From NCBI GenBank assembly GCA_017518295.1, contig JAFWVJ010000012.1, forward strand, positions 338,010-402,009: a stretch of 64,000 nucleotides of DNA. Direction: 5' to 3'. Each line of letters begins with the position of its first letter. Within the stretch, counting starts at the first letter, position 1. The notes under the pieces are model-generated. The model searched no databases and had not been told where the DNA came from. It saw only the letters and a list, made by a program, of their open reading frames with translations. This DNA is from Clostridia bacterium (GTDB lineage: Bacteria; Bacillota; Clostridia; TANB77; UBA1234). The position numbers and the translations under genes are program-made. Shown piece after piece: positions 16,137 to 51,895 of this stretch.

Positions 16137-16575
16137 ATTTGTCTTCTTTCTTAAATACAAACAATTTACTTAGCACATAGTTTCCTATCATTACTAATGC
16201 TTGTGTAACAAGCGTCCAAATAAATACTTCTATCTTACTATTCATTCCTAAGAAGTTTATAAAAAACCACATACAAAGTGCTTCAAGTCCCAATGTGGCA
16301 ACTCTACCACCCATAAACTTTGCCATTTCTTTTGCTATCTTTTCTGACTTACTTTTAAATACAAATTTTCTATTTGTAAAATAAGCAAATGTACATGCGA
16401 TAAACCAAGATAAAAATACTGCTATTTGCACATGTATTTCATTTTTTGGATCTAATATTGTAAATAGTAGCCCATACTTAACAGCCAAAGATACCATTGC
16501 TGCCAAAACTCCAGCTATTAAATAATTAACTATTTCCTCATATTTAAAATATAATTCTTTAAGTTTGTCTATCAT
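16132..16575 (-). CDS. GtrA-family membrane protein (paralog)
   Basis: IVNYLIAGVLAAMVSLAVKYGLLFTIL; 4 TM. Confidence 0.7.
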   Translation of the reverse strand: MIDKLKELYFKYEEIVNYLIAGVLAAMVSLAVKYGLLFTILDPKNEIHVQIAVFLSWFIACTFAYFTNRKFVFKSKSEKIAKEMAKFMGGRVATLGLEALCMWFFINFLGMNSKIEVFIWTLVTQALVMIGNYVLSKLFVFKKEDKS

Positions 16576-16592
16576 GTTTGCTCCTTATTTTT

Positions 16593-17231
16593 TTATATCT
16601 CGACATCTTCTTTTTTAATATCTCTTTGTAGTTCAAATATGACACTTGGTAATGGAACTGTTTTATTGTTCACAACTTTACCACCACATCTTTGATAAAA
16701 GCCTAATGCTTGTTCGCGCACATCACGTGCTTCTAATTTATCTATATCTAGAGTTTTTAAGTAATCCATTGTTACATTTAATACTTTTTCGCCTAAGTGC
16801 ATTCCTCTATGTTTATCATCTACTAGTATCGCAACATCATTACTTAATGTCAAATAATTATTATCTTTTATATCTAAAGGAAATTCTTCATTTAGCATCA
16901 TATTCTTTAATCTTTCTTGTGTACAAAGCACAGCACTTCTATTTTGATTGTATAACATTACTTCCGAAAATCCTATTATAGTATTTTCTTCTGCTAGTAT
17001 AAAACTCGTTATTCTATCTGGTGCATCTTTAAAAGGTTTTTCACTCGGTGCAAAATCTTTTTCTATATAAAACATTCTCAAATTTTCATTTGGAAGTTCC
17101 ACAATAGCTTGTTTCCAACCTTTTAAATCTGTACTTGGTGATTTAATATGAGCATTTTCATCTATGACTTCTTGATTAACTTTTTTAGATTTAACTCTAC
17201 TTAATAAGTCTCTAATATCTTTTAATCTCAT
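16593..17231 (-). CDS. GNAT-family N-acetyltransferase
   Basis: ILVDDKHRGMHLGEKVLNVTMDYLK...ALGFYQRCGG; ORF-track N-terminus (to 17354) runs through a REP element, likelier start MRLKDIR at 17231 with SD gggagg. Confidence 0.65.
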   Translation of the reverse strand: MRLKDIRDLLSRVKSKKVNQEVIDENAHIKSPSTDLKGWKQAIVELPNENLRMFYIEKDFAPSEKPFKDAPDRITSFILAEENTIIGFSEVMLYNQNRSAVLCTQERLKNMMLNEEFPLDIKDNNYLTLSNDVAILVDDKHRGMHLGEKVLNVTMDYLKTLDIDKLEARDVREQALGFYQRCGGKVVNNKTVPLPSVIFELQRDIKKEDVEI

Positions 17232-17247
17232 ATAAATCACCTCCCAT

Positions 17248-17301
17248 TCGTACCGGCGACCATTGCTCGCCGCTACGTATCGGCGGTCATCGACCGCCAT
17301 C
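17248..17301. repeat. GC-rich palindromic intergenic repeats (REP-like, two units)
   Basis: cgtaccggcgaccattgctcgccgctacgtatcggcggtcatcgaccgccat. Confidence 0.7.
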
Positions 17302-17377
17302 ACAATTATATTATACCATACAATTATGTTAATGACAAAAAAATCCGAGGGCACTTGCCCTCGGTTTTCCTCCTTTT

Positions 17378-18079
17378 TTATTTTTTATCACTATATTCAA
17401 TAACGATATCTTCGCCCACAGAAACTCCATCCGGTGCAATCTTTACAGGCTCATCCGTTGTTACATCATTGTTCTTATTACTGATGTAGACAACATTTGT
17501 GGTGCCGATACGTTCCGTTGCAGGACCGTGGTGAACCGTAGCATCGAGCCATACCGTCAGGAAAATGATCAGAAGTGCCAGAATAATCAGGCCCCATACC
17601 GGAAGTTTGGAATCACTCTGCAACCATTTCTTGATATTTTCGCTGTTGAAACGGCTGGGCTTCTTTTCTTCCCGCTTATCTTCCTGCTTATCGGTCTTCT
17701 GTTCCATATAGATCATCCTTTCTTCAACTCTGCTTACCTTCCTATTAACAGAATCGATAAGCTCACTGTTGTTCTGAGAAAGTTTCAGGATGCGATCGAG
17801 CCGGTCATCTTCCATACGCTCAATCTGCTGGTTCTCAGGCTGCTGAACCGGAGCTTTCTGCTCAGTCATAGCTTTCGTGGCATCCGGAGCCTTCTTAGCA
17901 GGGCGACCTCTCTTGGCCGGTGCTTTCTGTTCAGTCGTAACCTTCTTGGTGGTCGAAGCTTTCCTGGTGGTGGTCTTCTTGGCAGTGGTTTTCTTGGTTG
18001 TAGTGTTCGTGGTGCCTTCCTCCTTTTTGTCCATAACCGGGTTAACAGATTCCACAGGGTTGTCAGGTGTCCTTTTCAT
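17378..18079 (-). CDS. hypothetical membrane protein with Lys/Thr-rich N-terminal tail containing an AT-hook-like KRGRPAKK segment; GC-rich codon usage
   Basis: N-terminal TTKKTTAKKTTTRK...AKRGRPAKKAP; single TM LIILALLIIFLTVWL; composition visibly GC-richer than flanks. Confidence 0.5.
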   Translation of the reverse strand: MKRTPDNPVESVNPVMDKKEEGTTNTTTKKTTAKKTTTRKASTTKKVTTEQKAPAKRGRPAKKAPDATKAMTEQKAPVQQPENQQIERMEDDRLDRILKLSQNNSELIDSVNRKVSRVEERMIYMEQKTDKQEDKREEKKPSRFNSENIKKWLQSDSKLPVWGLIILALLIIFLTVWLDATVHHGPATERIGTTNVVYISNKNNDVTTDEPVKIAPDGVSVGEDIVIEYSDKK

Positions 18080-18290
18080 AGCTTGGACCCTCCTTAATTA
18101 ATAATACGTTTGAAATTATATCACAAATTATGTCTACCGTCAATAAATTATGTAAATTGCAAGAACTTACTTTACTTTTTAGTTTTTACCTAATCTTATG
18201 CTTTTTATTGTATGAATATGCAAAAATTAGCTTTTTGCCAAAAACTTTATGTAAATATTTAAATATTTATGATATAATGCACTCGTTAAT

Positions 18291-18387
18291 GGCGAGCAAT
18301 GCTCGCCGATACGAAATTTGGCGAGCATTGCTCGCCTGTACGGAATTGAATTAAGCATCGTACCGGCGGTCAATGACCGCCACTACG
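18291..18387. repeat. GC-rich palindromic intergenic repeats (REP-like, three units)
   Basis: ggcgagcaatgctcgcc x2 plus cgtaccggcggtcaatgaccgccactacg. Confidence 0.7.
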
Positions 18388-18414
18388 AAAATCTAAAAGA
18401 AAGGAAGTGAATAC

Positions 18415-20106
18415 ATGCTTAGATTCTTAAAAAAAGTCATATTTAGTAGAAGCTTTATGACTGCTTTATTAATAATACTTCAACTTGGCTTTTATGCTTT
18501 AATTGGAAGTGTATTAATTGAATATTCAACAATTATACAAGTCATTGCTTATGTTTTAAGCGTTCTACTTGCTATATACATACTAAGTTTAAAAAATGGA
18601 TCTATAGATGTAAAACTTCCTTGGGTAATAATTATTATTCTATTCCCTGTTTTTGGATCAATCTTTTATTTCTTCTTTAGAAATCAAAGAGTTAGAAAAA
18701 AAGTTAGAAAAAATTTAGAAGCTCAAGCTTATGCTACTAAGAAGATTTCTCACTCGCCAGAAGTTATTTATGAAGAATTAAAAATTAAAAACAAAGATGT
18801 TCACAATCAATCTTATTACATATATAAAAATACAAACATGCCTATTTATAAAAATACTGTAAGCACTTATTTTGAAAGTGGCGAAAAATATTTTGATGCT
18901 TTAGTTGAAGAGTTAAACAAAGCACAAAAATTTATTTTTATGGAATACTTTATAATTAAGCAAGGAAAAATGTGGTCTACAGTTTTCAACATATTAAAAG
19001 AAAAAGCAAAAGAAGGTGTTGAAGTTCGTTTATTATATGATGACTTTGGATGTATCAACGATCTTCCTCAATCTTATAAAAAGCATGTTGAAAAATATGG
19101 AATTAAATGCGAAGTATTTAATCCAATTTATCCTATAACTACTCTTGCTCATAATAATAGAGATCATAGAAAGATTGTTGTTATAGATGGTATAGTTGGT
19201 TTTACAGGTGGCATTAATCTAGCAGATGAATATATAAATGTTATAAATAGATTTGGCCATTGGAAAGATACTGGAATTATGATAAAAGGAGATGCTGTAA
19301 AAAGCTTTTCGCTAATGTTTTTAGAAAGCTGGCATATCTATAGAGATGAAGGCGAAGATTACTCTCCTTATCTTCCAGAACTAGAAATCATAGAGCAAAC
19401 TGCTCCTCAAAAGAAAAAAAGATTTAAGAGAAAAAATAAAAAACAAAGAGAAAAGAAATTAAAAGGAAAGAAAAGCTTTTCTGAAACAATTGATATTGCA
19501 AATATTCCAAAAGCAACATCTAAATTTATCTACAAAAACGATTGGGCAAATTCAGAAGAATTTATCCAACCTTACATGACTACTCCAATGGAAGTAGATG
19601 AAATCGTTGGAAGAAATGTGTATGTAAATATTTTAAATTCAGCCAAAGACTACGTATATATAACTACTCCTTATTTGATTTTAGATCCAGAATTAGAAGA
19701 AGCTATAATAAATGCAGCTAAAAGAAGTGTAGATGTTAGAATAATTACTCCAGGAATTCCAGATAAAAAGATTGTATTTGCTGTAACTAGAAGCGAATAT
19801 ACAAACCTATTAAAACATGGCGTTAGAATCTTTGAATACACTCCTGGGTTTATACATGCAAAAAATGTAGTATCGGATGATACTGTTGCAACAATAGGTT
19901 CAATTAATTTCGATAATAGAAGTTTTTATCATAGCTACGAATGTGGAATATTTTTATATAATTCAGATAATGTAGAAATTATTAGAAAAGATTTTATTAA
20001 ATGCGAAAACTTATCTCAAGAAATCACTCTAAAAAATGCAAATAAGATTCCACTAAGTACAAGGATCAAAACTTCTTTATTTAGATTATTTATACCATTA
20101 ATGTAA
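18415..20106 (+). CDS. cls: cardiolipin synthase (phospholipase D superfamily, two HKD motifs) with Lys-rich insertion
   Basis: N-terminal 2 TM; HRKIVVIDG and HAKNVVSDD HKD motifs; KKKRFKRKNKKQREKKLKGKK insert. Confidence 0.8.
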   Translation: MLRFLKKVIFSRSFMTALLIILQLGFYALIGSVLIEYSTIIQVIAYVLSVLLAIYILSLKNGSIDVKLPWVIIIILFPVFGSIFYFFFRNQRVRKKVRKNLEAQAYATKKISHSPEVIYEELKIKNKDVHNQSYYIYKNTNMPIYKNTVSTYFESGEKYFDALVEELNKAQKFIFMEYFIIKQGKMWSTVFNILKEKAKEGVEVRLLYDDFGCINDLPQSYKKHVEKYGIKCEVFNPIYPITTLAHNNRDHRKIVVIDGIVGFTGGINLADEYINVINRFGHWKDTGIMIKGDAVKSFSLMFLESWHIYRDEGEDYSPYLPELEIIEQTAPQKKKRFKRKNKKQREKKLKGKKSFSETIDIANIPKATSKFIYKNDWANSEEFIQPYMTTPMEVDEIVGRNVYVNILNSAKDYVYITTPYLILDPELEEAIINAAKRSVDVRIITPGIPDKKIVFAVTRSEYTNLLKHGVRIFEYTPGFIHAKNVVSDDTVATIGSINFDNRSFYHSYECGIFLYNSDNVEIIRKDFIKCENLSQEITLKNANKIPLSTRIKTSLFRLFIPLM

Positions 20107-20111
20107 ATGAT

Positions 20112-20157
20112 GGCGAGCAATGCTCGCCGTTACGTAGCGGCGGTCATCGACCGCCAT
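20112..20157. repeat. GC-rich palindromic intergenic repeats (REP-like, two units)
   Basis: ggcgagcaatgctcgccgttacgtagcggcggtcatcgaccgccat. Confidence 0.7.
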
Positions 20158-20162
20158 AAAAA

Positions 20163-20192
20163 AACACGCCTTAATAAGGCGTGCTTTTTATT
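20163..20192 (+). terminator. rho-independent terminator (bidirectional)
   Basis: acacgccttaataaggcgtg hairpin plus ttttt. Confidence 0.55.
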
Positions 20193-21503
20193 TTACTTGA
20201 ACATATCAATCACTGAAGGTTTGTAATTGCAAATAACTTCATAAGCGGTCTTGTTGCTAAGAAGTTTTGCAATCCACTCAAAATCTTTTACAACTTCATG
20301 AGGCTTGCTGGGATTTTCGAAGAAGGACTGCACATAAGAAGCAATAACTACTTCCAAATCATATTCATCGACTCCAAATACAGTAGTATAAAGATCAACT
20401 ACTGCATTCAATGTCTCACCATCAAAGTAGTCGATTGTTTCTGTGATTGCAGATGCATAATCCATCTTGATATCATAGAACAGTTCGCTTCTATAAAGTG
20501 CATTGTCTTTGATCCTCTCAATGAGGCCAATAAATCTTTCTTTAAAATCCATACTATCTTCAAGCATAAAGCTTGTACGCAAAATCATGTTGAAGTAGAA
20601 AGTATAAATCTGAGAAAGATTCTGAGGATAAATCTTGCAAAGTGCATCGATTGCATCGATTGCCATCACATCACATACACCGAAGACAAAATCACAAGCA
20701 TCGATCTTTGCCATCAATTTATCCATAAAGGTATCACTATCTTCACAGTATCTCGTATCAAAATCACGAAGCTCAAAGATATCTTCATCAGTAGCACCAA
20801 TCAAGAATTCATTAAAGTTTTCTTTAAAGATTGCTTTAACATCTTCTGCACAGCTTTCTTTGCCACCGATAGCTTTGAAATTTCCAGTTTTGAGAAGATA
20901 GGTAAAATCAGAAAAAGTCCAACTAAGCAGTCTAGTTTCAACCAAATCTTCTTCGGCCATTTTATGAGATACTGCATTAAGCACTGGGCAATTTTTTACT
21001 TTGCTAAATGCTTCAGGAAATGACACTTCACAAAATTCACAAATCCTATAAAGTGCGTTTACAAATCCCTGTCTAAATTCATTATAATAATCGAATTCAT
21101 ACTCTCCATCTTCTACATAAAAATTTTCTTCGCCGTAAAGCAAAAAGATTCTAGAAGAAATCACATAAAGAAGATTCAGACAGTAATTTGTATTGTAGCC
21201 ACGCGGAAGATAAAGATCAACAATCCTCTTAAAGCAACCATAAATCTGATTACCAGTCTCATCTCCGAAATCATAAATTTCTTCTTTAACAATCTTAGAA
21301 ATCAGAGAGTAGTCAAAGAATACTTTGCTAAAGTCTTGCATCTCTTTTTCCATCCGAGATTTATCCACCTCAGAAAGTTCAGGCACATTTTGAGGCGCAG
21401 GTGAAGTTGAAGATTCAGGAAAATTACCAGGAAGTGAATCATACTTACTTTCACTAGGTCTTCCGTCACGAATCTTGCGATTAAAAAAATCCCTCAAGTT
21501 CAT
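20193..21503 (-). CDS. hypothetical protein (436 aa), acidic, Cys-containing
   Basis: long ORF; no recognisable motif; moderately GC-enriched. Confidence 0.5.
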   Translation of the reverse strand: MNLRDFFNRKIRDGRPSESKYDSLPGNFPESSTSPAPQNVPELSEVDKSRMEKEMQDFSKVFFDYSLISKIVKEEIYDFGDETGNQIYGCFKRIVDLYLPRGYNTNYCLNLLYVISSRIFLLYGEENFYVEDGEYEFDYYNEFRQGFVNALYRICEFCEVSFPEAFSKVKNCPVLNAVSHKMAEEDLVETRLLSWTFSDFTYLLKTGNFKAIGGKESCAEDVKAIFKENFNEFLIGATDEDIFELRDFDTRYCEDSDTFMDKLMAKIDACDFVFGVCDVMAIDAIDALCKIYPQNLSQIYTFYFNMILRTSFMLEDSMDFKERFIGLIERIKDNALYRSELFYDIKMDYASAITETIDYFDGETLNAVVDLYTTVFGVDEYDLEVVIASYVQSFFENPSKPHEVVKDFEWIAKLLSNKTAYEVICNYKPSVIDMFK

Positions 21504-21579
21504 AGTCTTTCCTCCTTAATTGTGTCGGAAATAGTAACCATAGAAACAAGAGAGATTATATATCGTTTACAAAATTATG

Positions 21580-22684
21580 TCAATTGATATTTGCTCTTAA
21601 AAAGCTATCCATAAAATCGTTAATTTCGCCATCCATTACAGCCTGAACGTTTCCAACCTCATAATTAGTACGATGGTCTTTAACTAATGTATATGGGCAA
21701 AATACGTAGCTTCGTATTTGGCTACCCCATGCAATTTCTCTTTGGACACCTTTTAAATCTTCTATCCTTTCTTTATTTTCGCGTTCTTTTAATTCTATAA
21801 GCTTAGAAATAAGCATTTTCATGGCATATTCTCTATTTTGAATCTGAGACCTTTGAGTTTGGCAACTAACAATAATATTAGTAGGAATATGTGTAATTCT
21901 AATAGCAGATTCGGTCTTATTAACGTGTTGTCCGCCTGCGCCAGAGCTTCTATAAGTATCTACTTTTAGGTCTTCTGGATTAATCTCAACATGCACGCTA
22001 TCATCTATTTCGGGAATAACTTCTACGCTAGCAAAAGAAGTATGTCTTCTTCCTCCACTATCAAATGGTGAAATTCTAACTAGTCTATGAACTCCACTTT
22101 CACATTTCATATATCCATAAGCATATGTGCCAATAATTCTAAAAGTCACACTTTTGATACCAGCAACGTCACCATCTAAGTAATCGATTTCTTCTAATTT
22201 AAAACCATTTTTCTCAGCCCACATATTATACATTCTATAAAGCATTTGTGCCCAATCTTGTGATTCAGTGCCACCAGCACCAGGATGAATAGTCACAATT
22301 GCATTATTTTTGTCGTGAGGACCACTTAGTAAATTTTCTGTCTCTAATTTATCTACGCCTTTACTTAGCTTTTTAAATGAGCTTTGTATCTCATGAATTA
22401 AACTTTCATCATTTTCTTCATTAGCAAGTTCTATCATAGCATCTAAATCTTCTGCATCAGAAAATAAACTATTATAGTTAGTTACCTTATCTTTTAAAAG
22501 CTTAATTTCTTGAAGTACTTTACTGCTATTTTCTTGATCGTTCCAAAAGCTAGCATCATTAGTTTGAGCTTCTAGTTCTTTTAACCTAGTCTCTTTAGAA
22601 GCAATGTCAAAGAGACTCACCCATTTCTGTAATTCTTTCCTTCAAAGACTTTAGCTTAGGAGCTAGTTCTTCTAATTCAAGCAT
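21580..22684 (-). CDS. prfB: peptide chain release factor 2 with programmed +1 ribosomal frameshift
   Basis: GGQ motif SGAGGQHVNKTESAIRITHIPT, SPF motif SPFDSGGRRHTSF; frame-0 MLELEELAPKLKSLKERITEMGESL then CTT TGA C at ~22606-22612 shifting into main frame. Confidence 0.85.
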
Positions 22685-22708
22685 TCATCTCACATCCTTT
22701 TTTCAATT

Positions 22709-22737
22709 CGTAACGGCGACCAAAAGGTCGCCGCCAT
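22709..22737. repeat. GC-rich palindromic intergenic repeat (REP-like)
   Basis: cgtaacggcgaccaaaaggtcgccgccat. Confidence 0.65.
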
Positions 22738-24093: not shown

Positions 24094-24162
24094 GGCGACC
24101 AAAGGTCGCATTTCGTATCGGCGAGCATTGCTCGCCATGGCAATCGATGATCGCCGCTACGA
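24094..24162. repeat. GC-rich palindromic intergenic repeats (REP-like, three units)
   Basis: ggcgaccaaaggtcgc...cgtatcggcgagcattgctcgccatggcaatcgatgatcgccgctacg. Confidence 0.7.
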
Positions 24163-24606
24163 TTCAGCTTCTACGCTTACTTTTAATGTGCCCGAAATTC
24201 CTTCAAATAGTTTTATTTCTACATTGTATGTGCCTAAGTTCTTAATCGCATCATCAAGCATTACTTTCTTTTTATCTACTTCTACAAAGTATTTTTTATT
24301 TAATTCATCTGCTATATCTTTACTAGTAACACTTCCAAAAATCTTTCCATTGTCTCCTGCTTTGATTTTAAATATAAGCTCAAAGTCTTTCATTTTTTCT
24401 TTTAATTCCTTTGCAGCAGCCATGCTCATGTCTTTTTTATATTTGTTTGCTTCTTGTTTAGTCTTAAGAGCATTCATGTTTGCTGCATCTGCTATAACAG
24501 CCATCTTTTTCGGTAATAAAAAGTTTCTTGCATATCCATCTGACGCATCAAGAACTTGACCTTTTTTACCAACTGATTTGATGTCTTGTAATAAAATAAC
24601 TTTCAT
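24157..24606 (-). CDS. rplI: 50S ribosomal protein L9
   Basis: MKVILLQDIKSVGKKGQVLDASDGYARNFLLPKKMAV; ORF-track start extended upstream. Confidence 0.85.
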   Translation of the reverse strand: MKVILLQDIKSVGKKGQVLDASDGYARNFLLPKKMAVIADAANMNALKTKQEANKYKKDMSMAAAKELKEKMKDFELIFKIKAGDNGKIFGSVTSKDIADELNKKYFVEVDKKKVMLDDAIKNLGTYNVEIKLFEGISGTLKVSVEAES

Positions 24607-33972: not shown

Positions 33973-34283
33973 TTATAATTCTCCTTTCCAATTTTTTAAG
34001 AACCTAAACTATTATAGTAACATAATGTAAATTATGCAATACCTTAAATCACTATTTTATAAGTATAATTACCTTAAAACACATATACTGATAAAATAGC
34101 CTTAATAAGCCATTTTATTGCATTTTATGTAAATTTGTGATATAATATTTGTAGTTTTCTATATTATTTTAGTGGTTTAACTTTTTTGTTTTTCCACGCT
34201 CACGAGTGGATTAATACAATTGTAGACCACTAATTTTATGGGAAACGAAAAAATTATGGCCATAGGCCAAGGAGGAAATCATC

Positions 34284-34883
34284 ATGAAAAAAGGGTACTT
34301 CAAAAACGGGTTCCGGTCTATTCTAAAAATTTTCTGGTTTATTCTCAATTTTGCTGCAAACTTCATTGGCCTTGCCTTTGTGGTTTGCCCCATCATTTAT
34401 GCTTTTGCAAAGCATGTTGATGTGGAAGCAACTCTTGTATCAGTTTGGGACAAAATCGACTCCATTTCTTCGACAGGAATCCTTCCTGTAGATTATCTTT
34501 ATAGAGCTTTAAAAGAGCTGTGGATAATCATCGGGCAAATTCCTATGGGGAATTGGATCCAGATGGGCATTGTTGTAATTGTTGCAATCGAGTCGATTAG
34601 GTATTTTACAAAGCCTATTCGCACTGGATTTGCAAAGTTTACAAATTTGTTCCATAGAGAAAGTAAGGTATTCCCCAAGCTGAAGGGAACAATGTCAAAA
34701 GGAGCATCTTCTTTTGATCCTGATGCCGAAGGATACAAGAACTGGCATCCCGGTGAAAAAGGTCCCATGGACAATGTTCCTCCTGAGCTAATTGAGAAAA
34801 TCTCTCATAGCTCAGAAGAAAGTAAGCCTGATGAAGAAAAGGGTAATGTCGTGAGCATTGCATCTTTTAGAAAGAAGGCTTAA
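34284..34883 (+). CDS. hypothetical membrane protein (199 aa) with GC-rich codon usage
   Basis: 3 predicted TM; SD ggaggaaatc; composition markedly GC-richer than flanks; followed by hairpin terminator and palindromes. Confidence 0.5.
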   Translation: MKKGYFKNGFRSILKIFWFILNFAANFIGLAFVVCPIIYAFAKHVDVEATLVSVWDKIDSISSTGILPVDYLYRALKELWIIIGQIPMGNWIQMGIVVIVAIESIRYFTKPIRTGFAKFTNLFHRESKVFPKLKGTMSKGASSFDPDAEGYKNWHPGEKGPMDNVPPELIEKISHSSEESKPDEEKGNVVSIASFRKKA

Positions 34884-34889
34884 TTCGTT

Positions 34890-34927
34890 TCCCGAATCCC
34901 TCGTGTGCTACACGGGGGATTTTTTTG
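34890..34927 (+). terminator. rho-independent terminator
   Basis: atccctcgtgtgctacacgggggat hairpin plus ttttttt. Confidence 0.5.
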
Positions 34928-35028
34928 AGACTTGGGGACGTTCCCCAGAAGTCTCACGCACGAAATTTCAAACTTGAAAGTGAGACTTGGAGGGAATGTC
35001 CCCAAGTCTCAGTGTTCGCCGCTACGAA
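34927..35028. repeat. two copies of a ~27-bp perfect palindrome (gagacttggggacgttccccaagtctc-type) plus REP-family tail ...cgccgctacg
   Basis: copies at 34927-34955 and 34981-35012; third copy at 41676-41702. Confidence 0.65.
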
Positions 35029-35051
35029 TTTTTATTACAACAAAAAAAGAA

Positions 35052-35567: not shown

Positions 35568-35904
35568 ACTCCTGTCTTTCTTTATTTCTTACGGATTTTA
35601 GCTTTTGTATATAAAAATAGTCCTTTTTAGGGGTAAAATAAGACAAGTAAAGAAAACTTTACATGTCAGTAACATACTTGTAACAATCTATGCAATTAGC
35701 TTACAGACTGTGTTTCGAGGACTATTGATTATCAAAATTTAATGAAATCTTACGGATATACAAGATTTCTTTAAAAAGGGTCTTGACTCACGACCCATAG
35801 TTAGTATAACATATCACGCCAAAATTGTCAAAGAATTTATAAAAAATTATGTCAATTTTAATTTTTTAATCGATTTGATATACTCCATGTTATAAATAAA
35901 AAGC

Positions 35905-35950
35905 GTCTAAAATACTAGAAAATCTAGTAATTTAGACGCTAAATATTTAT
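35905..35950 (-). terminator. rho-independent terminator after helicase gene
   Basis: agcgtctaaa...tttagacgct hairpin plus T-run on minus strand. Confidence 0.55.
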
Positions 35951-35962
35951 TAGAATAATAAA

Positions 35963-37981
35963 CTATTCTGAAATAATTTTTGTAAGCTCTTTAGAATAAA
36001 TCACATCAAGCTTATGCATTGCTCTTGTACATGCCACATAAAGTAAATCTCTATCGGATTCGCTTCTATAGTTGTCTACTTCTGCTCCAACAACAATCAC
36101 ATAGTCAAATTCCAAACCTTTTGAAAGTTGTACTGTTGTGATTTTTGCTTTTGCATTTTTCTTTTCATCAATCATGCAAACGTTAACTTTATTTTCTTTT
36201 AGCTCTTTATAAAGTTCATTTGCTTGTTTGGTGTTTTTGCAAACGATTCCGATGTTTCTATACTTCTTATCCGCTTCTTTTATAGCTTGTCTAATATAGC
36301 TACTTACATCTTCAGCCTTAGCAATTGTTACTTCTTCTCCGTGGCGAACCACAGATTCAATATTTGCTAGTTCAGGCTTAATCTTCTTACTAAATTCAAT
36401 AATTTCGTAAGTAGATCTGTAGCTTTTATTAAGCTCAATTACAGAAGCTCCATCAAAGCAACTAATAACATCACCAATAGATGTTCTAATTCCACTAATC
36501 GATTGTGCAATGTCACCCAAAATAGTCTTATTACAATCATACACAAGATTAATTAGTCCAAAGCATACAGGCGAATAATCTTGCATCTCATCGATGATAA
36601 GATGTTTGATTGGCACAATAGGTTTCTTTCCATTAAACCTTGCCTCAATATAAGCCATCGGGAAAAGATCTGCATACTCAAAGCGATTCTTACCATGGAC
36701 AAAGTATTGTTCTTTTCCTGCCCAGCTAAAGAACTCTTCATAAGTTGTAAGTGCATTCTTAAAGTTAAACATCTGATTAATTCTCTGGCGAAGCTCTCTT
36801 TTCTTTAAAACAAGTCCTTCATCAGCTCCGAGAGAAACTATATCTTCAAAGATTATATTTGCTCTTTCAGTAGGTGTATATTTTGAATACTTTAAGAACT
36901 TTTCATATAAGTAGTCTTTTGTTACTTCATAATTACCAACTTTAAACGGAATCGGATTAAAGCAACTATCAATAGAGTTATCTACAAAATGCTTAAGGTC
37001 TGTAAAGAACTCCATTGAAGATTTGTACTTTGCTCTTGCTACATACTTAGGATCATTTCCATCAATAATCTTTTCTGCTTGTTCCCAAGCAGTTTCAAAG
37101 TGGTAATTATCAGGAAGCAAATCTTCTGCAATCTGGTTTGCTTCACATTGCAAGATATTCTCTTCATCAAGTTCCGGAAGGACTCCAGAAATATACTCAG
37201 AGAAAATCTTGTTAGGCGAAATAACCAAGATTTCTTTTGAAGTAAGCTTTCCTTTATACTTATAAAGTAAGAATGCTGCTCTGTGAAGTGCAATAGAAGT
37301 TTTACCAGAACCTGCAGCTCCCTGAATAACAAGTACATTAGAAGTCACATTTCTGATAACACTATTTTGTTCTTTCTGAATAGTAGAAACAATATTGTGC
37401 ATCTTCTGATCCGAAGTCTGAGCAAGACATTCCATCAAAATGTCATCGCTAATATTCGAACCGCTATCTGCATAATAGATGATTTTATCGTCTTCAATCT
37501 TATAATGTCTTTTTAAGATGATCTCTCCAGTGATATCACAAGACGGTGCTTCATATTTAGCTTTTCCAAGTTCATATTCATAGAACATACTCGAAATAGG
37601 CGCTCTCCAGTCATAAACATAAAAGTCAAGACTGCCTTTTTCAAGTAGTGCTCCCAAGCCAATATAAACATTCGTCACTGTTTTATCTTCGTCATCTATG
37701 AAATCAATTCGTGCAAAATAAGGAGATTTTCTCATCCTTTGATATTTTGCATGATCCTTGACATACATATCCCCAGTCATTACTTGCCCTTCAATTTGTT
37801 CTTGGGCTTGCATGATTTCTACTGGGTCAAGTTCATAGATATTCTCCCAAAGCGATCTCTTATCAGAAAGAATAGATAAGCCGAACTGATCTATTTTCGC
37901 TTTTGTTTCATCAAGAAATTTGTCGATTAGCTTAATTACTTTTCGCAAATAGTTCTTTTCTTCCGAACTTGCACGAAACAT
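35963..37981 (-). CDS. UvrD/Rep-superfamily ATP-dependent DNA helicase, HelD (helicase IV)-like
   Basis: Walker A VIQGAAGSGKTSIALHRAAFLLY ~200 aa from N-terminus; long N-terminal extension typical of HelD. Confidence 0.7.
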   Translation of the reverse strand: MFRASSEEKNYLRKVIKLIDKFLDETKAKIDQFGLSILSDKRSLWENIYELDPVEIMQAQEQIEGQVMTGDMYVKDHAKYQRMRKSPYFARIDFIDDEDKTVTNVYIGLGALLEKGSLDFYVYDWRAPISSMFYEYELGKAKYEAPSCDITGEIILKRHYKIEDDKIIYYADSGSNISDDILMECLAQTSDQKMHNIVSTIQKEQNSVIRNVTSNVLVIQGAAGSGKTSIALHRAAFLLYKYKGKLTSKEILVISPNKIFSEYISGVLPELDEENILQCEANQIAEDLLPDNYHFETAWEQAEKIIDGNDPKYVARAKYKSSMEFFTDLKHFVDNSIDSCFNPIPFKVGNYEVTKDYLYEKFLKYSKYTPTERANIIFEDIVSLGADEGLVLKKRELRQRINQMFNFKNALTTYEEFFSWAGKEQYFVHGKNRFEYADLFPMAYIEARFNGKKPIVPIKHLIIDEMQDYSPVCFGLINLVYDCNKTILGDIAQSISGIRTSIGDVISCFDGASVIELNKSYRSTYEIIEFSKKIKPELANIESVVRHGEEVTIAKAEDVSSYIRQAIKEADKKYRNIGIVCKNTKQANELYKELKENKVNVCMIDEKKNAKAKITTVQLSKGLEFDYVIVVGAEVDNYRSESDRDLLYVACTRAMHKLDVIYSKELTKIISE

Positions 37982-38083
37982 CTCTATACCTCCTTTTAAA
38001 ATTATTTTGAGAAGAATATCTATAAAGCCTATTTACTCGCTTGACATATTATCATCTTTTTTACATAATTTCAAGCATTTTGT

Positions 38084-38112
38084 TGACATTACTGTAAACC
38101 TATGATATTCTT
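38084..38112 (+). promoter_or_regulatory. sigma-A-like promoter (TTGACA-17-TGaTATTCT); second candidate TTGACA...CATAAT at 38040-38068
   Basis: near-consensus -35 and extended -10 about 60 nt upstream of small peptide ORF. Confidence 0.4.
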
Positions 38113-38171
38113 TCGATGTCGAAAATATTTTTCGGCCTCGTATCAATTTTTTTGAAAGGAGGATCCACAAC

Positions 38172-38336
38172 ATGGAAAAGCGCACTTCTTCTTGCTCCGC
38201 TACCATGCGGAACGATCGCGTTGATGGCCTGAAGGCCAAAGTTTCTACTACTGGTAAAAATAAGAAGATTAAACTTTCCTACGCTGGCAAATATGGCCAG
38301 GGTTACGATGGCTGTGGTACCCACACGCACAAGTAA
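38172..38336 (+). CDS. uncalled 54-aa Cys-containing peptide (MEKRTSSCSATMRNDRVDGLKAKVSTTGKNKKIKLSYAGKYGQGYDGCGTHTHK), candidate RiPP precursor
   Basis: strong SD aaaggagga 8 nt before ATG; GC-rich codon usage identical to downstream rSAM gene; below ORF-track size cutoff. Confidence 0.45.
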   Translation: MEKRTSSCSATMRNDRVDGLKAKVSTTGKNKKIKLSYAGKYGQGYDGCGTHTHK

Positions 38337-38396
38337 TATTTTTTGAGATATATCTTGTAAGTGTCCTATAACTATGTGAAAACAAAGTTTCTACAA

Positions 38397-38432
38397 AAGA
38401 AGAATGCCTACCTAAGGCATTCTTCTTTTTAT
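38397..38432 (+). terminator. intercistronic hairpin/partial terminator between peptide gene and rSAM gene
   Basis: agaagaatgcctacctaaggcattcttct plus ttttat. Confidence 0.5.
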
Positions 38433-38471
38433 ACATCAACAGCCACATTATGTTAAGGAGGTATTATACAA

Positions 38472-39824
38472 ATGAGATCACCTTGGATGAGTAGTTCGTA
38501 CAAAAAAATGGATGGACTCAGACGTTTCCAGCGGAACATTGAAGGCCAAACCTTCACTATTCTGCTGAACGAAGAGATCGGCTCCTGGATGGTCTTCACC
38601 GAAGAAGACATCAAGCGTTACGATAACGATCAGCTCAATGAGCTGGAAATGGAATCTCTCTACCTGCGCGGCCTTGCTCTTGATGATCAGGGCGAAATGG
38701 TTGAGTTTGACTTCCCCAAGCCCGAAGAATATCCGAGCGTCGTTGTTGTCAACATCACTACTACCTGTAACCTTAGGTGCAAGTACTGCTTTGCTGACTG
38801 TGGCCCCATTAAGGGCGAGTTTATGAGCGAAGAAGTCATGCGGCTCCTTATCGAGCAGATGTTTCAGATGCCCACTCCTCTGGTCACTTTCGAGCTTCAG
38901 GGCGGAGAACCTCTTTGCTTCAAAGATGGCATCGAGAAGTTCTGTGAAATCTCTGAATCCCTCAAGGACAAGTATGGAAAGCGCGTTCAGTACCGCACTG
39001 TGACCAACTGTACTCTGATCGATGACAGGTTCATTGAACTTGCCAAGAAGTACAATATCATCACTGGCGTGAGCCTGGATGGTCCTAAGAAATGTACTGA
39101 CGAGCTTCGGATTCACGCTGATGGTACTGGCGCTTTCGATGATATCATGGCTGGTATCGCACGTCTTCGTGCTGCTGGTCTGGATGTCGATGGTGCTGTG
39201 TGTACTGTGGGACAGCATAACTGCTCTCACCCCAAGGAAGTCGTTGACTTCTTCGCAGAGCAGGGTATCAGTTTCAAGCCGCGTCCTGCAAACAAGCTCG
39301 GCCGTGAACTCACCAACAACACTACGACAAAAGATGGTGAATGGGCCGAATGCTACAAGCAGATGTATTATCGTAGCAAAGAAAAGGGTATCGAGAACTT
39401 CTCTATTCATATCTACGAAGAGAATATCTACACTCCCATTCGCGACTACATCTGCATGCGCTATCCCTGTGGTGCCGCACGAGAAGTTATCTCTGTGAAT
39501 CCCAATGGTGATGTGTTCCCCTGTGATGGTTTCAAGGGTGAAAAAGAGTTCGTTATCGGCAATCTGCTTCAGGAAACCCTGGTTGATATGCTGAATAAGG
39601 ACTGGGTTATCACCCTTAAGAACCGCACGGCCGCCAGTATCCCGCAGTGCAGCAAGTGCATGTTCCGTTCTATGTGCTGTTCCTGCTGCTACTCTGCTTA
39701 TGGCGAGTTCGGAACTATCTACCGCGAAGACCCCACCTGTGCTGATAGGCGCAAGATTTTCATGTTCCTGTTCGATGAATGGATCAGGCAGAACATTTTG
39801 GGCATCATGCCCAAGACTCCCTAA
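38472..39824 (+). CDS. radical SAM/SPASM-domain peptide-modifying enzyme with ~95-aa N-terminal (RRE-like) extension
   Basis: CNLRCKYCFAD CxxxCxxC motif at ~res 100; C-terminal Cys-rich SPASM-like CSKCMFRSMCCSCCY and CPCDGF; GC-rich codon usage. Confidence 0.8.
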   Translation: MRSPWMSSSYKKMDGLRRFQRNIEGQTFTILLNEEIGSWMVFTEEDIKRYDNDQLNELEMESLYLRGLALDDQGEMVEFDFPKPEEYPSVVVVNITTTCNLRCKYCFADCGPIKGEFMSEEVMRLLIEQMFQMPTPLVTFELQGGEPLCFKDGIEKFCEISESLKDKYGKRVQYRTVTNCTLIDDRFIELAKKYNIITGVSLDGPKKCTDELRIHADGTGAFDDIMAGIARLRAAGLDVDGAVCTVGQHNCSHPKEVVDFFAEQGISFKPRPANKLGRELTNNTTTKDGEWAECYKQMYYRSKEKGIENFSIHIYEENIYTPIRDYICMRYPCGAAREVISVNPNGDVFPCDGFKGEKEFVIGNLLQETLVDMLNKDWVITLKNRTAASIPQCSKCMFRSMCCSCCYSAYGEFGTIYREDPTCADRRKIFMFLFDEWIRQNILGIMPKTP

Positions 39825-39840
39825 ATAAGGAAAAGAAAAA

Positions 39841-39880
39841 GAGGCTGCCATAATTTATGGTAGCCTCTTATCTTTTTATG
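39841..39880 (+). terminator. rho-independent terminator after rSAM gene
   Basis: gaggctgccataatttatggtagcctc hairpin plus T-run. Confidence 0.45.
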
Positions 39881-39891
39881 GAGGTGAAAAA

Positions 39892-40512
39892 ATGGGATAC
39901 TATGCTGGTGATTTTGATAGATTCCTTGAAAGTCCTTATGCAATTATTGGACCAAGAGAATCTGGCAAAACAACTATCTTGAAAAGAGTTTTATCACTTG
40001 CTTATGAACAAGGATATACAATTGCTGTTTTTGATAGTTGCACAGATCATAAAGAAAAATCTATTTTGATACATGCTAAAGAAAATTATCCTGACGCAGT
40101 ATATATTCCATCACCAGAGAAAAAAGAAATATTAAACATGTATGCGATACCAGATTTTAAAAAAGGTTTTTATCCTACATCTATTATTGATAAAAAACAT
40201 GATAAAAGGATTTTTCTTTTTGACGTTGCAAAATATCTAGAAGAAGGTTACGACACAGAAGACTTAGAAGAAAGAGCAAGAATTCGGCTTTATTATAGAT
40301 GTCTCGTTCGTCAAGAGCTTTATGCTTTTGCATATTATATGCTAAGTAAAAAGATTCTTATAATTATGGATGAGATAGAACTTTTAGATACTATGTTTGA
40401 AATCATCAATACACTATATCATAATAATAAGCCAATATTACTTGCACTCCACAGTGAAGTTGCACTTTCTGGATTAAAACCATTCTTCGAGGTGATGCAT
40501 CTTGGAGAATAA
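39892..40512 (+). CDS. P-loop NTPase of unknown function
   Basis: Walker A GPRESGKTT; Walker B-like ILIIMDE; AT-rich codon usage. Confidence 0.5.
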   Translation: MGYYAGDFDRFLESPYAIIGPRESGKTTILKRVLSLAYEQGYTIAVFDSCTDHKEKSILIHAKENYPDAVYIPSPEKKEILNMYAIPDFKKGFYPTSIIDKKHDKRIFLFDVAKYLEEGYDTEDLEERARIRLYYRCLVRQELYAFAYYMLSKKILIIMDEIELLDTMFEIINTLYHNNKPILLALHSEVALSGLKPFFEVMHLGE

Positions 40513-41065
40513 ATCATATCCAAAACCTACTGATATGTTGTGTGGAAGTGCATGTCTATATTATCTTGCAACTCAAGTTTTTAATGTGCCATGTGATGAT
40601 TTGCCAAATGATTATATGTGGATAACTGATATTGCTTCTTATGTGATCAAGCATTTTGATAAAAGAGCAACACTATCCTGCTTTGAAAGTAATCTATATA
40701 ACGATTATAAAAAAGCAAACTTCAATATGATTCCTTGCTTTGAAGGATTCAAAAAAGTAGATGCATTTTTAAAAAGCGGAAAAGAAATCGAAGAAAAAGA
40801 AATTACAGAAAAAGAAATAGATACTCTACTCAAAAGATATAGAATAGCTCTTTTAAATGTATCGTCTGCTGTATTTAATCAAGATGCAAAGATGCGAGGC
40901 GGCCATTATATAATTATAATTGGCGAAAAAAATGATGAATATCTTATTGTAAATCCTTGCAAAACAAGTATTACTGAACTTTGGTATCCAAAAGAAATAA
41001 TATTAGATGCAGCTACTTGTTTTGGAAGCTGGATGATAACAATCTTAAACTATAAAAAGAGATAA
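40502..41065 (+). CDS. papain-like cysteine peptidase, C39-like (bacteriocin-processing-type fold), standalone
   Basis: candidate catalytic Cys in LCGSACLYY and His in GGHYIIIIG; overlaps upstream gene by 11 nt. Confidence 0.45.
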   Translation: MENKSYPKPTDMLCGSACLYYLATQVFNVPCDDLPNDYMWITDIASYVIKHFDKRATLSCFESNLYNDYKKANFNMIPCFEGFKKVDAFLKSGKEIEEKEITEKEIDTLLKRYRIALLNVSSAVFNQDAKMRGGHYIIIIGEKNDEYLIVNPCKTSITELWYPKEIILDAATCFGSWMITILNYKKR

Positions 41066-41089
41066 TCCTTTTGGGGATTATCTCTTTTT

Positions 41090-41638
41090 TTAACCTTCTA
41101 AAAATTCACATACTTTTTTAAATACATTATCTCCTCTATTAATTTTAATTGCATACATACCAGCTTTGATTGCACCATCAACATTTTCTTGATTATCATC
41201 TACAAACAAAAACTCTTCTGGTTTTAATTTATAATATTTTATTATTTCTCTATAGAAGTTTAAATGAGGTTTTACTTTATTCATTTTTGCTGAAACGAAT
41301 ATCTTATCTATATGCTTTATATCTAATGTTTCTTTAATATGTTTTTCAATATATGAAATATGATTTGTGCCAATAGCAAATATAATATCGGGATATTTTT
41401 TATTAAGTCTAGAAAATAAGTCTTTATCTTTTATCTCATATAATATATCTATTATATTTTTTGCAGTTTTTAAAGCCTTTGCAGAGTTTGGTTCTATCTT
41501 GTTAACTTGTTTTGCATATTTTTCGTCACTATAATTTTTGCCAAAGAATCTTTCTAACTTATCTTCTACATCAGTTAACTCAATATCCTTTTCTCTAACT
41601 AAAACACCACCATAATCAAAAACAATAACTTTAATCAT
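41090..41638 (-). CDS. HAD-superfamily hydrolase
   Basis: MIKVIVFDYGGVL DxD motif; SD aaaggag before ATG 41638; ORF-track N-terminal extension runs through repeat. Confidence 0.7.
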   Translation of the reverse strand: MIKVIVFDYGGVLVREKDIELTDVEDKLERFFGKNYSDEKYAKQVNKIEPNSAKALKTAKNIIDILYEIKDKDLFSRLNKKYPDIIFAIGTNHISYIEKHIKETLDIKHIDKIFVSAKMNKVKPHLNFYREIIKYYKLKPEEFLFVDDNQENVDGAIKAGMYAIKINRGDNVFKKVCEFLEG

Positions 41639-41650
41639 ATCTGCTCCTTT

Positions 41651-41702
41651 TGTACCGGCGGTCATCGACTGCCATGAGACTTGGGGACGTTCCCCAAGTC
41701 TC
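41651..41702. repeat. REP-like unit fused to 27-bp perfect palindrome
   Basis: gtaccggcggtcatcgactgccat + gagacttggggacgttccccaagtctc. Confidence 0.7.
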
Positions 41703-43071
41703 ATTTTGAAATTGCAACTTCGATTGCTTCTCTTATAGTTCTAACGCCTGTTACTTTAATATTAGGTTTATACTTGATTTGTTTTAAAGCACTTTGTGGA
41801 ACTATAATTTCTTCAAATCCCATTCTCTCAGCTTCTTTAACTCTTTTTTCTAATTGACTAACCGATCTTATTTCGCCAGTTAATCCGACTTCTCCGACAG
41901 CAACCAAATTTTTACTAATCGGCATATTTTTATAGCTTGATGCAAGCGAAAGAGCAATAGCTAAATCTGCAGCAGGTTCATCTAATTTAATACCTGATAC
42001 TACATTTACATATGCATCTTGATTGCTAAGAGGTAAGTTTGCTCTTTTTTCTAAAACAGCAAGTAATAAAACTAATCTATTAAATTCAACTCCTATTCCT
42101 GTTCTACGAGCCATACCATAAGCAGTAGGAGTAACTAATGCTTGAACTTCAATTAGCATAGTACGAGTGCCTTCTAAAGTTGCGACTATTACAGATCCTG
42201 AAGGATTACCAGCACGATCAGATATCATTATATCCGAAGGATCACTTATCTCGCACATACCTTCTTCACGCATTTCAAAAATTCCAACTTCATTTGTTGA
42301 ACCAAATCTATTTTTTGCTCCTCTTAAAACTCTATAAGAGAAAAATCTTTCACCTTCAATATATAAAACAGCATCAACCATATGTTCCAAAACTCTAGGG
42401 CCAGCAATACTACCGTCTTTTGTAACGTGACCAATTATGATTGTAGTGATGTTTTGCTTTTTGCAAGTCATCATTATTTTGGCAGTTACTTCTCTTACTT
42501 GTGAAACACTTCCAGGAGCTGCTGGAATATCATCACTATAGATTGTTTGAATTGAGTCGATGATTACTAAACCAGGCTTAATATTTTCAATCGCTTCATC
42601 TATAAGACTCATCGACGTTTCACCTAAGAAGAAAATACTATCATTATCAATGTTCAATCTATCGGCACGCATTTTTATTTGTGAGCCAGATTCTTCTCCT
42701 GATACATATAAAATAGGACCATTAACTTTGACTTTATCGCAAATTTGCAAAATTAAAGTAGACTTACCAATACCAGGTTCACCGCCTAATAGAACAAGCG
42801 AACCTTGTACCAAACCACCGCCTAAAACTCTATCTAATTCATCATAACCAGTTTTGTATCTTTCATAATTATTTGTTTCTACATCTTTAAGCTTAAGTAT
42901 ATTTGCTTTAGTCGCAGTAGTTCTTGCTCCTAGACCAGAGGTTACTTTTGAATCTGCTACCTTTTGTTCAAAAAATGAATTCCACTCTCCACACGCTGGA
43001 CACTTACCTAGCCACTTAGTGCTTTCATTTCCACAATTATTACATACAAAAATTACCTTACTTTTAGCCAT
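41701..43071 (-). CDS. radA: DNA repair protein RadA/Sms
   Basis: zinc finger CNNCGNESTKWLGKCPACGEW; Walker A GEPGIGKSTL; KNRFG motif; Lon-like C-terminus. Confidence 0.9.
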   Translation of the reverse strand: MAKSKVIFVCNNCGNESTKWLGKCPACGEWNSFFEQKVADSKVTSGLGARTTATKANILKLKDVETNNYERYKTGYDELDRVLGGGLVQGSLVLLGGEPGIGKSTLILQICDKVKVNGPILYVSGEESGSQIKMRADRLNIDNDSIFFLGETSMSLIDEAIENIKPGLVIIDSIQTIYSDDIPAAPGSVSQVREVTAKIMMTCKKQNITTIIIGHVTKDGSIAGPRVLEHMVDAVLYIEGERFFSYRVLRGAKNRFGSTNEVGIFEMREEGMCEISDPSDIMISDRAGNPSGSVIVATLEGTRTMLIEVQALVTPTAYGMARRTGIGVEFNRLVLLLAVLEKRANLPLSNQDAYVNVVSGIKLDEPAADLAIALSLASSYKNMPISKNLVAVGEVGLTGEIRSVSQLEKRVKEAERMGFEEIIVPQSALKQIKYKPNIKVTGVRTIREAIEVAISK

Positions 43072-51812: not shown

Positions 51813-51895
51813 AGTGGCAACCTTTAGGTCGCCACTACTGTTTCGTATCGGTGAGCATCGCTCAACATATGGCGACCGGTGGTCGCCGCTACAGC
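51813..51895. repeat. GC-rich palindromic intergenic repeats (REP-like, three units)
   Basis: agtggcaacctttaggtcgccact ... cgtatcggtgagcatcgctcaacat atggcgaccggtggtcgccgctacag. Confidence 0.7.

Follow-up and report, generated by a model that had tools for sequence, protein, structure and literature searches.

Palindromes near a small membrane protein gene of a rumen Clostridia bacterium: probable rare modules of REP-like hairpin clusters

Introduction

The closest described counterparts of the locus considered here are REP (repetitive extragenic palindromic) sequences and the arrangements that they form, bacterial interspersed mosaic elements (BIMEs) and REP doublets forming hairpins (REPINs) (Nunvar 2010, PMC2817692; Bertels and Rainey 2011, PMC3116915; Di Nocera 2013, PMC3733652). 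The locus lies in a 64-kb stretch of DNA (the window; contig JAFWVJ010000012.1 of assembly GCA_017518295.1) from an uncultured Clostridia bacterium. The element in question is a palindrome of 27-31 nt, here called PAL, with two copies (PAL A and PAL B) near a gene for a 199-residue (199-aa) membrane protein and a third (PAL3) at the stop codon of radA. PAL is probably a rare, low-copy hairpin module within REP/BIME-like clusters and not the end of a mobile cassette.

REPs as a class are regarded as non-autonomous elements, and the REP stem-loops of Escherichia coli reportedly act as stabilisers of mRNA 3' ends, attenuators and modulators of translation. A preprint is also listed for these RNA roles (bioRxiv 10.64898/2026.03.23.713779). 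GTAG repeats are described in Proteobacteria, Cyanobacteria, Chloroflexi and the Planctomycetes-Verrucomicrobia-Chlamydiae (PVC) group, with no Firmicutes among them (Di Nocera 2013, PMC3733652), and just Group 1 REP-associated tyrosine transposases (RAYTs) are reported in Clostridia (Bertels 2017).

The repeats of the window resemble the GTAG REP/BIME/REPIN systems in several respects. They are imperfect palindromes, short and rich in GC, that occur at high density and strictly outside genes, with a short conserved unpaired tag beside the stem; within clusters the spacing is 1-30 nt, inversion is frequent and longer hairpins can form; they are sited after stop codons, between convergent genes and inside operons, and they vary between strains; and, as shown by proxy in a metagenomic contig (L076), a RAYT-like gene has units of the same 17-nt core on its flanks. 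They differ in their host, a Clostridia bacterium of about 30% GC, in their tag, which is GTA-N on both sides instead of GTAG on one side, and in the presence of PAL, which has a different stem, three copies and no tag of its own (it just abuts a tagged unit). With the REP stem-loops of E. coli they share stable hairpins in 3' untranslated regions (UTRs) and intercistronic gaps; the PAL doublet lies between convergent genes and PAL3 starts at the radA stop codon, comparable to REPs within 15 nt of a stop. Unlike those stem-loops, the ones considered here have a function read only from position and folding energy.

Source organism and sequences compared

The source organism, of the rumen or gut, recurs in many ruminant-gut assemblies, and window positions 24284-44883 are found at 99.98-100% identity in four independent contigs. 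The window has a mean GC of 0.31 and a mean GC at third codon positions (GC3) of 0.22, and its 64 open reading frames (ORFs) were ranked. With adjoining sequence, about 81 kb of the source genome was examined. It was compared with contigs L144 and L147 (a conspecific variant strain from sample ERZ12289775, 96-98% identical to the window in nucleotides), with L148 and L149 (strains 99.98% identical to the window), and with the nearest relative of another species for which usable data exist (L009/L010, with the gene table of a 99.5-kb contig), whose CarD is identical to that of the window at 95% of protein and 86% of DNA positions.

Three copies of the palindrome

The two PAL loci contain the following features.

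34926-34956: PAL A, imperfect, with a 2-nt insertion in the right arm (CCCCAGAAGTCTC); -17.5 kcal/mol (match scan and folding).
34957-34980: spacer CGCACGAAATTTCAAACTTGAAAG, containing a 3' flank of the REP type, (C/T)ACGAAATTT, and a small hairpin, TTTCAA/TTGAAA.
34981-35011: PAL B, imperfect, with a changed centre (GAGACTTGGAGGGAATGTCCCCAAGTCTC); -18.1 kcal/mol (comparison and folding).
35012-35033, minus strand: half REP unit with tag and flank, AAAAATTC-GTAGC-GGCGAAC-AC-.
41652-41673, plus strand: REP unit with tag, GTACC-GGCGGTCATCGACTGCC, 1 nt from PAL3.
41674-41704: PAL3, the sole perfect copy, with a 14-bp stem and a 3-nt loop; -23.3 kcal/mol (folding).

The three copies exist and are non-random: the half-site GAGACTTGGGGA has eight matches at two or fewer mismatches where 1.75 are expected, and 0 of 100 shuffles reached eight. 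An earlier note, made from the letters of the window, had described two perfect 27-bp palindromes near the 199-aa gene; both of these prove imperfect, PAL A through its insertion and PAL B through its centre, and only the third copy is a perfect inverted repeat (41676-41702, with 11-nt arms and a 5-nt centre, extending to the 14-bp stem of PAL3). The same note had placed this third copy in fusion with a REP-like unit, and such a unit does abut it.

PAL A and PAL B form an inverted, REPIN-like doublet. Their direct identity is 71%; PAL B agrees with the reverse complement of PAL A at 25 of 29 positions and with PAL A itself at 20 of 29. An inverted-repeat search of the region gave 32-nt arms that are 88% complementary, and PAL A, spacer and PAL B fold together as one hairpin of about 86 nt on both strands (z-scores of -9.3 and -6.9). 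At the other locus the radA stop codon (TGA, 41701-41703, minus strand) forms part of the PAL3 stem, and PAL3 with its REP unit fills the entire 62-nt gap between radA and the gene for a HAD hydrolase, which leaves no room for a promoter of the latter. PAL3 is identical in L148 and L149, strains so close to the window that they provide no measure of its stability.

Symmetric half-sites of 11-13 bp at two loci, in a GC-rich and distinctive sequence within an AT-rich genome, are also what an operator of a dimeric DNA-binding protein regulating the neighbouring genes would offer. The positions, however, are not promoters: the doublet is in a 3' UTR, with convergent genes on its two sides, and PAL3 in an intercistronic gap over the radA stop codon. 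Moreover, family-library scans of the neighbouring proteins gave no helix-turn-helix or other sequence-specific regulator encoded beside either locus. The asymmetric 2-nt insertions in PAL A and PAL B keep the pairing of the doublet and break the half-site spacing; PAL has also decayed in L147, though the gene is kept. An operator function thus appears very unlikely.

Searches with PAL as the query gave little. Rfam returned no family at gathering thresholds, and at relaxed thresholds only meaningless miRNA-precursor-like matches to the long hairpin; the PAL pattern had 0 matches in viral contigs. A scan of species-representative genomes for the PAL stem gave four matches in unrelated phyla, with other loops, and did not return the window's own copy, so that the source genome may be masked in that collection or missing from it. 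These four are regarded as chance hairpins, since a rough estimate allows for a few such matches when stems of 11 bp or more number in the millions. A CRISPR-like reading of PAL A and PAL B was rejected as well: the repeats number just two, are degenerate and fully palindromic and have 24 nt between them, and cas genes are absent.

A hairpin in another rumen Bacillota metagenome-assembled genome (MAG; L002, 2709-2735) has an 11-bp stem identical to that of PAL and a different loop (GAGACTTGGGGTATCTCCCCAAGTCTC), and a REP-like unit, GGCGCACAATGTGCGCC-ACTAC, is found at 1050-1068 of the same sequence. The stem match may be due to chance, or may hint that the PAL stem predates this species.

A family of REP-like units in the window

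A survey of hairpins in the window led to the family of the abutting units by way of a second palindrome-spacer-palindrome arrangement at 18291-18336, which has an unrelated stem (GGCGAGCAATGCTCGCC) and the same spacer motif as the PAL doublet (ACGAAATTT). The REP unit is a 17-nt GC-rich hairpin, GGCG(A/G)NC-AWNG-NYCGCC. It is tagged on either side by GTA..TAC, and GAAATTT often follows further out. Units fold as stems of 7-8 bp, and the half-site consensus is TTCGTAnY-GGCGrnCA. In the tags of the window half-sites (n=32), the first three bases are G in 23, T in 27 and A in 25.

Across the 64 kb at least 22 units fit the relaxed pattern, where 100 Markov simulations gave 0.64 on average, and six further units lie in the 7.9 kb to the left of the window (L145, 14108-19740). 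All are extragenic, after stop codons or in 5' UTRs, singly or in clusters of up to four; clusters of two to four units lie at 13.1, 16.0, 17.3, 18.3, 20.1, 24.1, 51.8 and 60.5 kb. The density is about 0.3-0.4 units per kb, and about 22% of intergenic regions carry REPs. No REP units were found in about 40 kb of close relatives. The units away from the PAL loci are located as follows.

11605-22732: zone with further extragenic REP units at 11605, 13087, 13109, 14341, 15942, 15993, 16091, 16114, 17255, 17282, 20112, 20139 and 22715.
18291-18393, plus strand: three clustered units with a TAC-GAAAWT flank after each, located in the 5' UTR of a PLD-family gene.
24094-24165, minus strand: cluster GTAGC-GGCGATCATCGATTGCC-AT-GGCGAGCAATGCTCGCC-GATACGAAAT, with the same layout as the PAL3 locus.
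51816-51895, minus strand: cluster of three units, one with compensatory stem changes (TGAGCGATGCTCA).
60538-60593, plus strand: cluster of two units, one of them degenerate.

What ties PAL to this family is the arrangement of the two loci, which in both cases reads GTAsC, REP hairpin, 1-2 nt, PAL and T-rich tail. On the plus strand from 41652 the PAL3 locus is GTACC-GGCGGTCATCGACTGCC-A-PAL3-TTTTGAAATT; on the minus strand from 35033 the doublet locus is GTAGC-GGCGAAC-AC-PAL B-CTTTCAAGTTTGAAATTTC-GTGCG-PAL A. Both match the REP-REP clusters seen on the minus strand from window position 24165 and, as GTAGC-REP-AT-REP-TAC, in the rumen contig L118, with PAL in the position of the second hairpin. 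The cluster at 24094-24165 has an ordinary REP hairpin where PAL sits at 41.7 kb.

Variation between strains

The variant strain represented by L147 keeps the 199-aa gene (97% protein identity) and the same terminator after it; the sequence beyond differs. There L147 has, in order, a decayed PAL A (GAGACTTGGGGACGCTTCTAAGAAGTCTC), a full REP unit (GGCGACCAGTGGTCGCC-GCTAC) and a canonical carD terminator (AAAAAAGACGACCGTTTGCTGGTCGTCTTTTTT), and PAL B is absent. Where L147 has the left arm of the REP unit (GGCGACCAGTGGTCGCC), the window has the spacer and PAL B, and the two sequences join in the loop of the REP, CAGTG. The 32-nt carD terminator AAAAAAGACGACCGTTTGCTGGTCGTCTTTTTT (L147, 5985-6033) is missing from window positions 35034-35051, where a deletion lies between A-runs. 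Since L147 has the gene and a decayed PAL A and no PAL B, palindrome content varies independently of the gene. The alignment indicates that PAL and REP hairpins are interchangeable at one position, and that the PAL doublet occupies the site of the lost carD terminator.

Two other sites point to REP clusters that are dynamic between strains. At 5190-5285 of L144 a 95-nt REP-containing insertion with TATGAAA direct repeats at its ends, at the equivalent of window position 58687 or thereabouts, lies between the radical SAM and DUF2344 genes, which in the window strain overlap each other; and L144 is without one REP unit of the cluster at 60538-60593.

As hairpins between convergent genes, at a site from which the ordinary carD terminator present in L147 and in relatives is gone, the PAL copies recall the bidirectional intrinsic terminators of low-GC Firmicutes. 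They differ in that the terminators of the relatives are single units of A-tract, stem and T-tract, with unrelated sequences, whereas PAL is without a clean U-tract, duplicated and fused to REP units.

PAL might then be an ordinary GC-rich terminator or stabiliser stem, duplicated locally by recombination or template switching, with its adjacency to REPs incidental. PAL is low in copy number and has no GTA tag; the two loci resemble each other in the flanks beyond PAL as well, as they would if some 75 nt had been copied; on the plus strand PAL3 is followed by TTTTGAAATT, which includes TTTT, and on the minus strand PAL B is followed by CTTTCAAGTTT, a U-rich stretch; and some adjacency is expected where REPs occur in so many intergenic regions. 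Incidental adjacency, however, fits poorly with a REP-PAL gap of 1-2 nt, with an order and orientation that the two loci share and that match the layout of REP-REP clusters, and with the REP hairpin that L147 has in the position of PAL B, the junction falling inside the REP loop. The copied segment, moreover, takes in the REP unit itself. Local duplication of an ordinary stem accordingly appears unlikely, and PAL as a module of the REP-like clusters is preferred.

Comparison with the nearest relative

In the nearest relative the gene order GH15-radA-carD-ABC ATPase-CARDB-...-FtsX-MscL is collinear with the window. Its radA-carD and carD-ABC ATPase gaps are 205 and 129 nt, both with ordinary A/T-flanked terminators, and neither contains the 199-aa gene or a palindrome. 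Two segments are extra in the window.

33973-35051: extra segment (i), the carD-ABC ATPase region, 129 nt in the relative and 1079 nt here; 199-aa gene, PAL A and PAL B.
35870-41718: extra segment (ii), ends approximate; HelD, a radical-SAM/SPASM peptide-maturase cluster and the HAD hydrolase gene.

Segment (ii) also holds the REP unit, PAL3 and the last five codons of radA: homology to L009 breaks off at window position 41719, with five radA codons still to go to the stop, and is found again from the promoter of carD (35832-35777). The carD neighbourhood is unrelated in more distant relatives. That the difference is an insertion in the window and not a loss in the relative rests only on the odd composition and opposite strand of the extra DNA. 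The suggestion that the 199-aa gene is an insert relative to this relative is supported by the empty site; the nearest relative has neither gene nor palindrome there, and so does not show the same gene at the same place without palindromes.

The placement of the PAL loci, one at the radA-proximal edge of the 5.9-kb segment and one at the carD-proximal edge of the 1.1-kb segment, could indicate that PAL with its REP unit is an integration or recombination site of foreign segments. The last five radA codons differ from those of the relative and resemble the spacer between PAL A and PAL B, and REPs are hot spots for insertion and rearrangement. Each segment, however, has PAL at one edge only, with no matching site at the other, and the similarity of the flanks is inverted, not direct. 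Family-library scans gave no integrase or recombinase gene in either segment, an arm of 13-14 bp with a 3-nt centre would make a poor tyrosine-recombinase core, and many other gene-level insertions and deletions separate the two genomes without PAL. A role as integration site is distinctly improbable.

The 199-residue membrane protein gene

The gene and its signals are as follows.

34269-34275, plus strand: Shine-Dalgarno sequence AAGGAGG, 8 nt 5' of the ATG (read from the sequence).
34284-34883, plus strand: gene for the 199-aa small membrane protein (ORF call).
34894-34926, plus strand: intrinsic-terminator-like hairpin with a 13-bp stem and a GCU loop, then a T7 run (sequence and folding).

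The gene, its Shine-Dalgarno sequence and the hairpin terminator after it stand as the earlier note had them. By eye the hairpin fits a Rho-independent terminator; a simple terminator scan missed it because part of the T-run pairs with the base of the stem. The GC-richness of the gene is real (GC 0.40 and GC3 0.39, against 0.31 and 0.22 for the window) and not unique, since it ranks fifth among the 64 ORFs.

The protein has a hydrophobic stretch at residues 12-43 and a weaker one at about 78-105 by hydropathy, and is composed largely of transmembrane helices and a tail that is probably disordered. It had no match in Pfam, PHROGs, PADLOC or NCBIfam, a word-indexed protein search found only its own cluster, and its name at NCBI is 'MAG: hypothetical protein IKI57_02220 [Clostridia bacterium]'. 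When 1.84 billion representatives were searched exhaustively with phmmer, four solid remote homologues emerged (39-46% identity, E 4e-17 to 6e-32), which in a shallow alignment share with it the C-terminal motif DAEGYKNWHPGxKGPxDNVPxEL, a hydrophobic N-terminal region and a WIQxGI..SLE..GYF segment. These alignments support a real, rare family of small membrane proteins, of which the gene in the window is a lineage-specific and probably horizontally acquired member. It is a unit separate from PAL, with its own Shine-Dalgarno sequence and terminator; its independence follows from its absence in the relative, its presence in L147 with other palindrome content, and its remote homologues.

The gene and the palindromes had been taken together as the footprint of one small mobile cassette or of an element like a MITE (miniature inverted-repeat transposable element), with the palindromes as its ends. 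There is some resemblance to a MITE or to an integron cassette (attC) in a small non-coding inverted-repeat structure beside a single gene of odd composition: the gene has a higher GC content than the DNA around it, runs on the opposite strand and is missing in the closest relative, and PAL A and PAL B form an inverted pair. The palindromes do not bound the gene, however. Both are on its 3' side, and nothing PAL-like occurs in the 5' region (33973-34283). A MITE would have terminal inverted repeats around the gene, of which there are none, and neither a target-site duplication (the flanks of the doublet, T7 and GTGTTCGCC, are not direct repeats) nor a transposase, DDE or other, was found; nor was an integrase. 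The attC core sites R''/R' (RYYYAAC...GTTRRRY) of an integron cassette are missing from the ends of the doublet, and IntI from the neighbouring proteins. The gene persists in L147 without the doublet, and the low identity of its homologues gives no sign of recent spread. A cassette of gene and palindromes is extremely unlikely; what holds, loosely, of the MITE-like description is that PAL is embedded in strain-variable REP/BIME-like clusters.

The REP family beyond this genome and its link to RAYTs

Units of this kind are not limited to the source genome. A metagenome scan in which only the fixed positions were specified (GTANNGGCGNNCANNGNNCGCCNNTAC) gave at least 120 loci. Among the matches listed, all four unspecified pairs are complementary in 74 of 120 (1/256 by chance), and 111 of 120 have GTAG on at least one strand; the contigs span 33% to 70% GC. 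A GTAG-tagged hairpin superfamily that is real and widespread in metagenomes is indicated by these counts. In viral contigs the REP pattern had three single matches, probably due to chance. The rumen contig L118 (33% GC) has the same units in the same cluster layouts as the window, and L070, a more distant carD relative, has a single REP unit 5' of carD.

A link to transposases comes from L076, in which a RAYT-like ORF with HUH and tyrosine motifs matches the NCBIfam model REP_Tyr_transpos (NF047646; E 1.4e-16, 60.6 bits, where the equivalog cutoff is 80). Units with the core GGCGAGCAATGCTCGCC, which is also the core of the window units at 18291, 20112 and 24120, lie on both flanks of the ORF and interrupt it in frame. 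The ORF has 1505 homologues at E of 1e-5 or below, many from Ruminococcaceae, Eubacterium and Clostridia MAGs, and some named RayT by the Joint Genome Institute (JGI). A 'Clostridia bacterium' homologue (P0206/L141) was considered as the source organism's own RAYT and rejected, as it belongs to a different organism with 44% GC.

The RAYT-like genes at 3761-4348 of L076 and 1-452 of L141, both metagenomic Clostridia contigs, carry REP units in frame within the coding sequence, for example ...SRASNARPYENGSERASNARPY....

Other features of the window

Segment (ii) contains several genes of note. The gene at 35963-37981, a 'UvrD-like helicase', is the RNA-polymerase recycling motor HelD (NCBIfam NF041464, 465 bits, cutoff 419), and it is absent between radA and carD in the nearest relative. 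On the plus strand at 38172-41065 are a 54-aa ORF, a radical-SAM/SPASM peptide maturase, a 206-aa P-loop protein and a 187-aa protein; the maturase (49% GC, GC3 0.59) is HxsB/DynA/PapB-like, under the family cutoffs. From its gene content and composition this stretch looks like a horizontally acquired cluster for a ribosomally synthesised and post-translationally modified peptide (RiPP).

Raised GC3 (0.36-0.52, against a mean of 0.22) is also seen in other small genes, at 12494-12973, 17378-18079, 57054-57860 and 61592-62790. The group at 60.7-63.4 kb adjoins a tRNA-Leu gene (62940-63027) and may be an integrated element. A link of GC-rich small genes with REP clusters was considered and dropped: three of the five genes highest in GC3 have an adjoining cluster, which is not significant at the frequency of REPs in the gaps. 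A more distant relative (L016, 4870-5450) has a GC-rich mini-gene after a long inverted repeat, in an AT-rich intergenic region.

Between mfd and the gene upstream of it, 32-nt inverted repeats (56738-56769 and 56925-56956) enclose a 155-nt segment that is inverted in L144 (153 of 155 positions identical in the opposite orientation, against 93 of 135 when collinear); 56738-56956 is a candidate invertible, phase-variable DNA switch. The gene mfd itself, for transcription-repair coupling factor (TRCF; 53200-56710), consists of two separate ORFs, of 526 and 578 aa, in the window strain and is intact (1169 aa) in L144; the split is either a frameshift pseudogene or an assembly error.

Proposed mechanism and significance

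As elsewhere with REPs, the REP and PAL hairpins would be generated and reshuffled on single-stranded DNA, the likely agents being a RAYT-type HUH transposase, template switching and recombination in hairpin loops, or both. When transcribed, they would act as stable RNA stem-loops at 3' ends or in intercistronic positions. The doublet sits exactly where the carD terminator was lost, with the 199-aa gene and carD converging on it, and so probably terminates and protects the transcripts of the two genes. PAL3 and its REP unit should make the radA message, which lies upstream, more stable, and should lower downstream expression, read-through or the termination of translation. By analogy with the stem-loops of E. 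coli, an RNA stem-loop role of PAL is plausible.

Several observations weigh against PAL as a module of the REP-like clusters. PAL is low in copy number (three copies at two loci in the sequence examined), is without a GTA or GTAG tag and has no sequence similarity to the GGCG..CGCC hairpins; its perfect stem was not found elsewhere in the source organism by the species-representative genome scan, which missed the window's own copy too. The fourth base of the tag is G in just 7 of 32 half-sites of this lineage, and no RAYT was found in the window by phmmer with a RAYT consensus. Both PAL loci are at edges of DNA absent from the relative, which could point to a role in integration. The simple terminator scan called no PAL hairpin, and the RNA-level functions are all deduced from position and folding energy.

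A further step, that this low-GC Clostridia lineage hosts an active REP/RAYT-type system in which unrelated hairpins such as PAL are swapped into REP positions via recombination in the REP loop, giving the doublet that replaces the carD terminator, is tentative and rather less probable. If true, it would document REP-type repeats remodelling 3' ends in a Firmicute, between strains that are almost identical.

The locus is largely ordinary, and no new kind of mechanism is implied. The species is unusually rich in REP-like hairpins, and its strain pairs capture the turnover of REP clusters at single-locus resolution: one hairpin exchanged for another within a REP loop, a REP insertion of 95 nt, and a terminator lost. 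It may thus be a natural system for how REP-type repeats arise and reshape 3' UTRs in Firmicutes.

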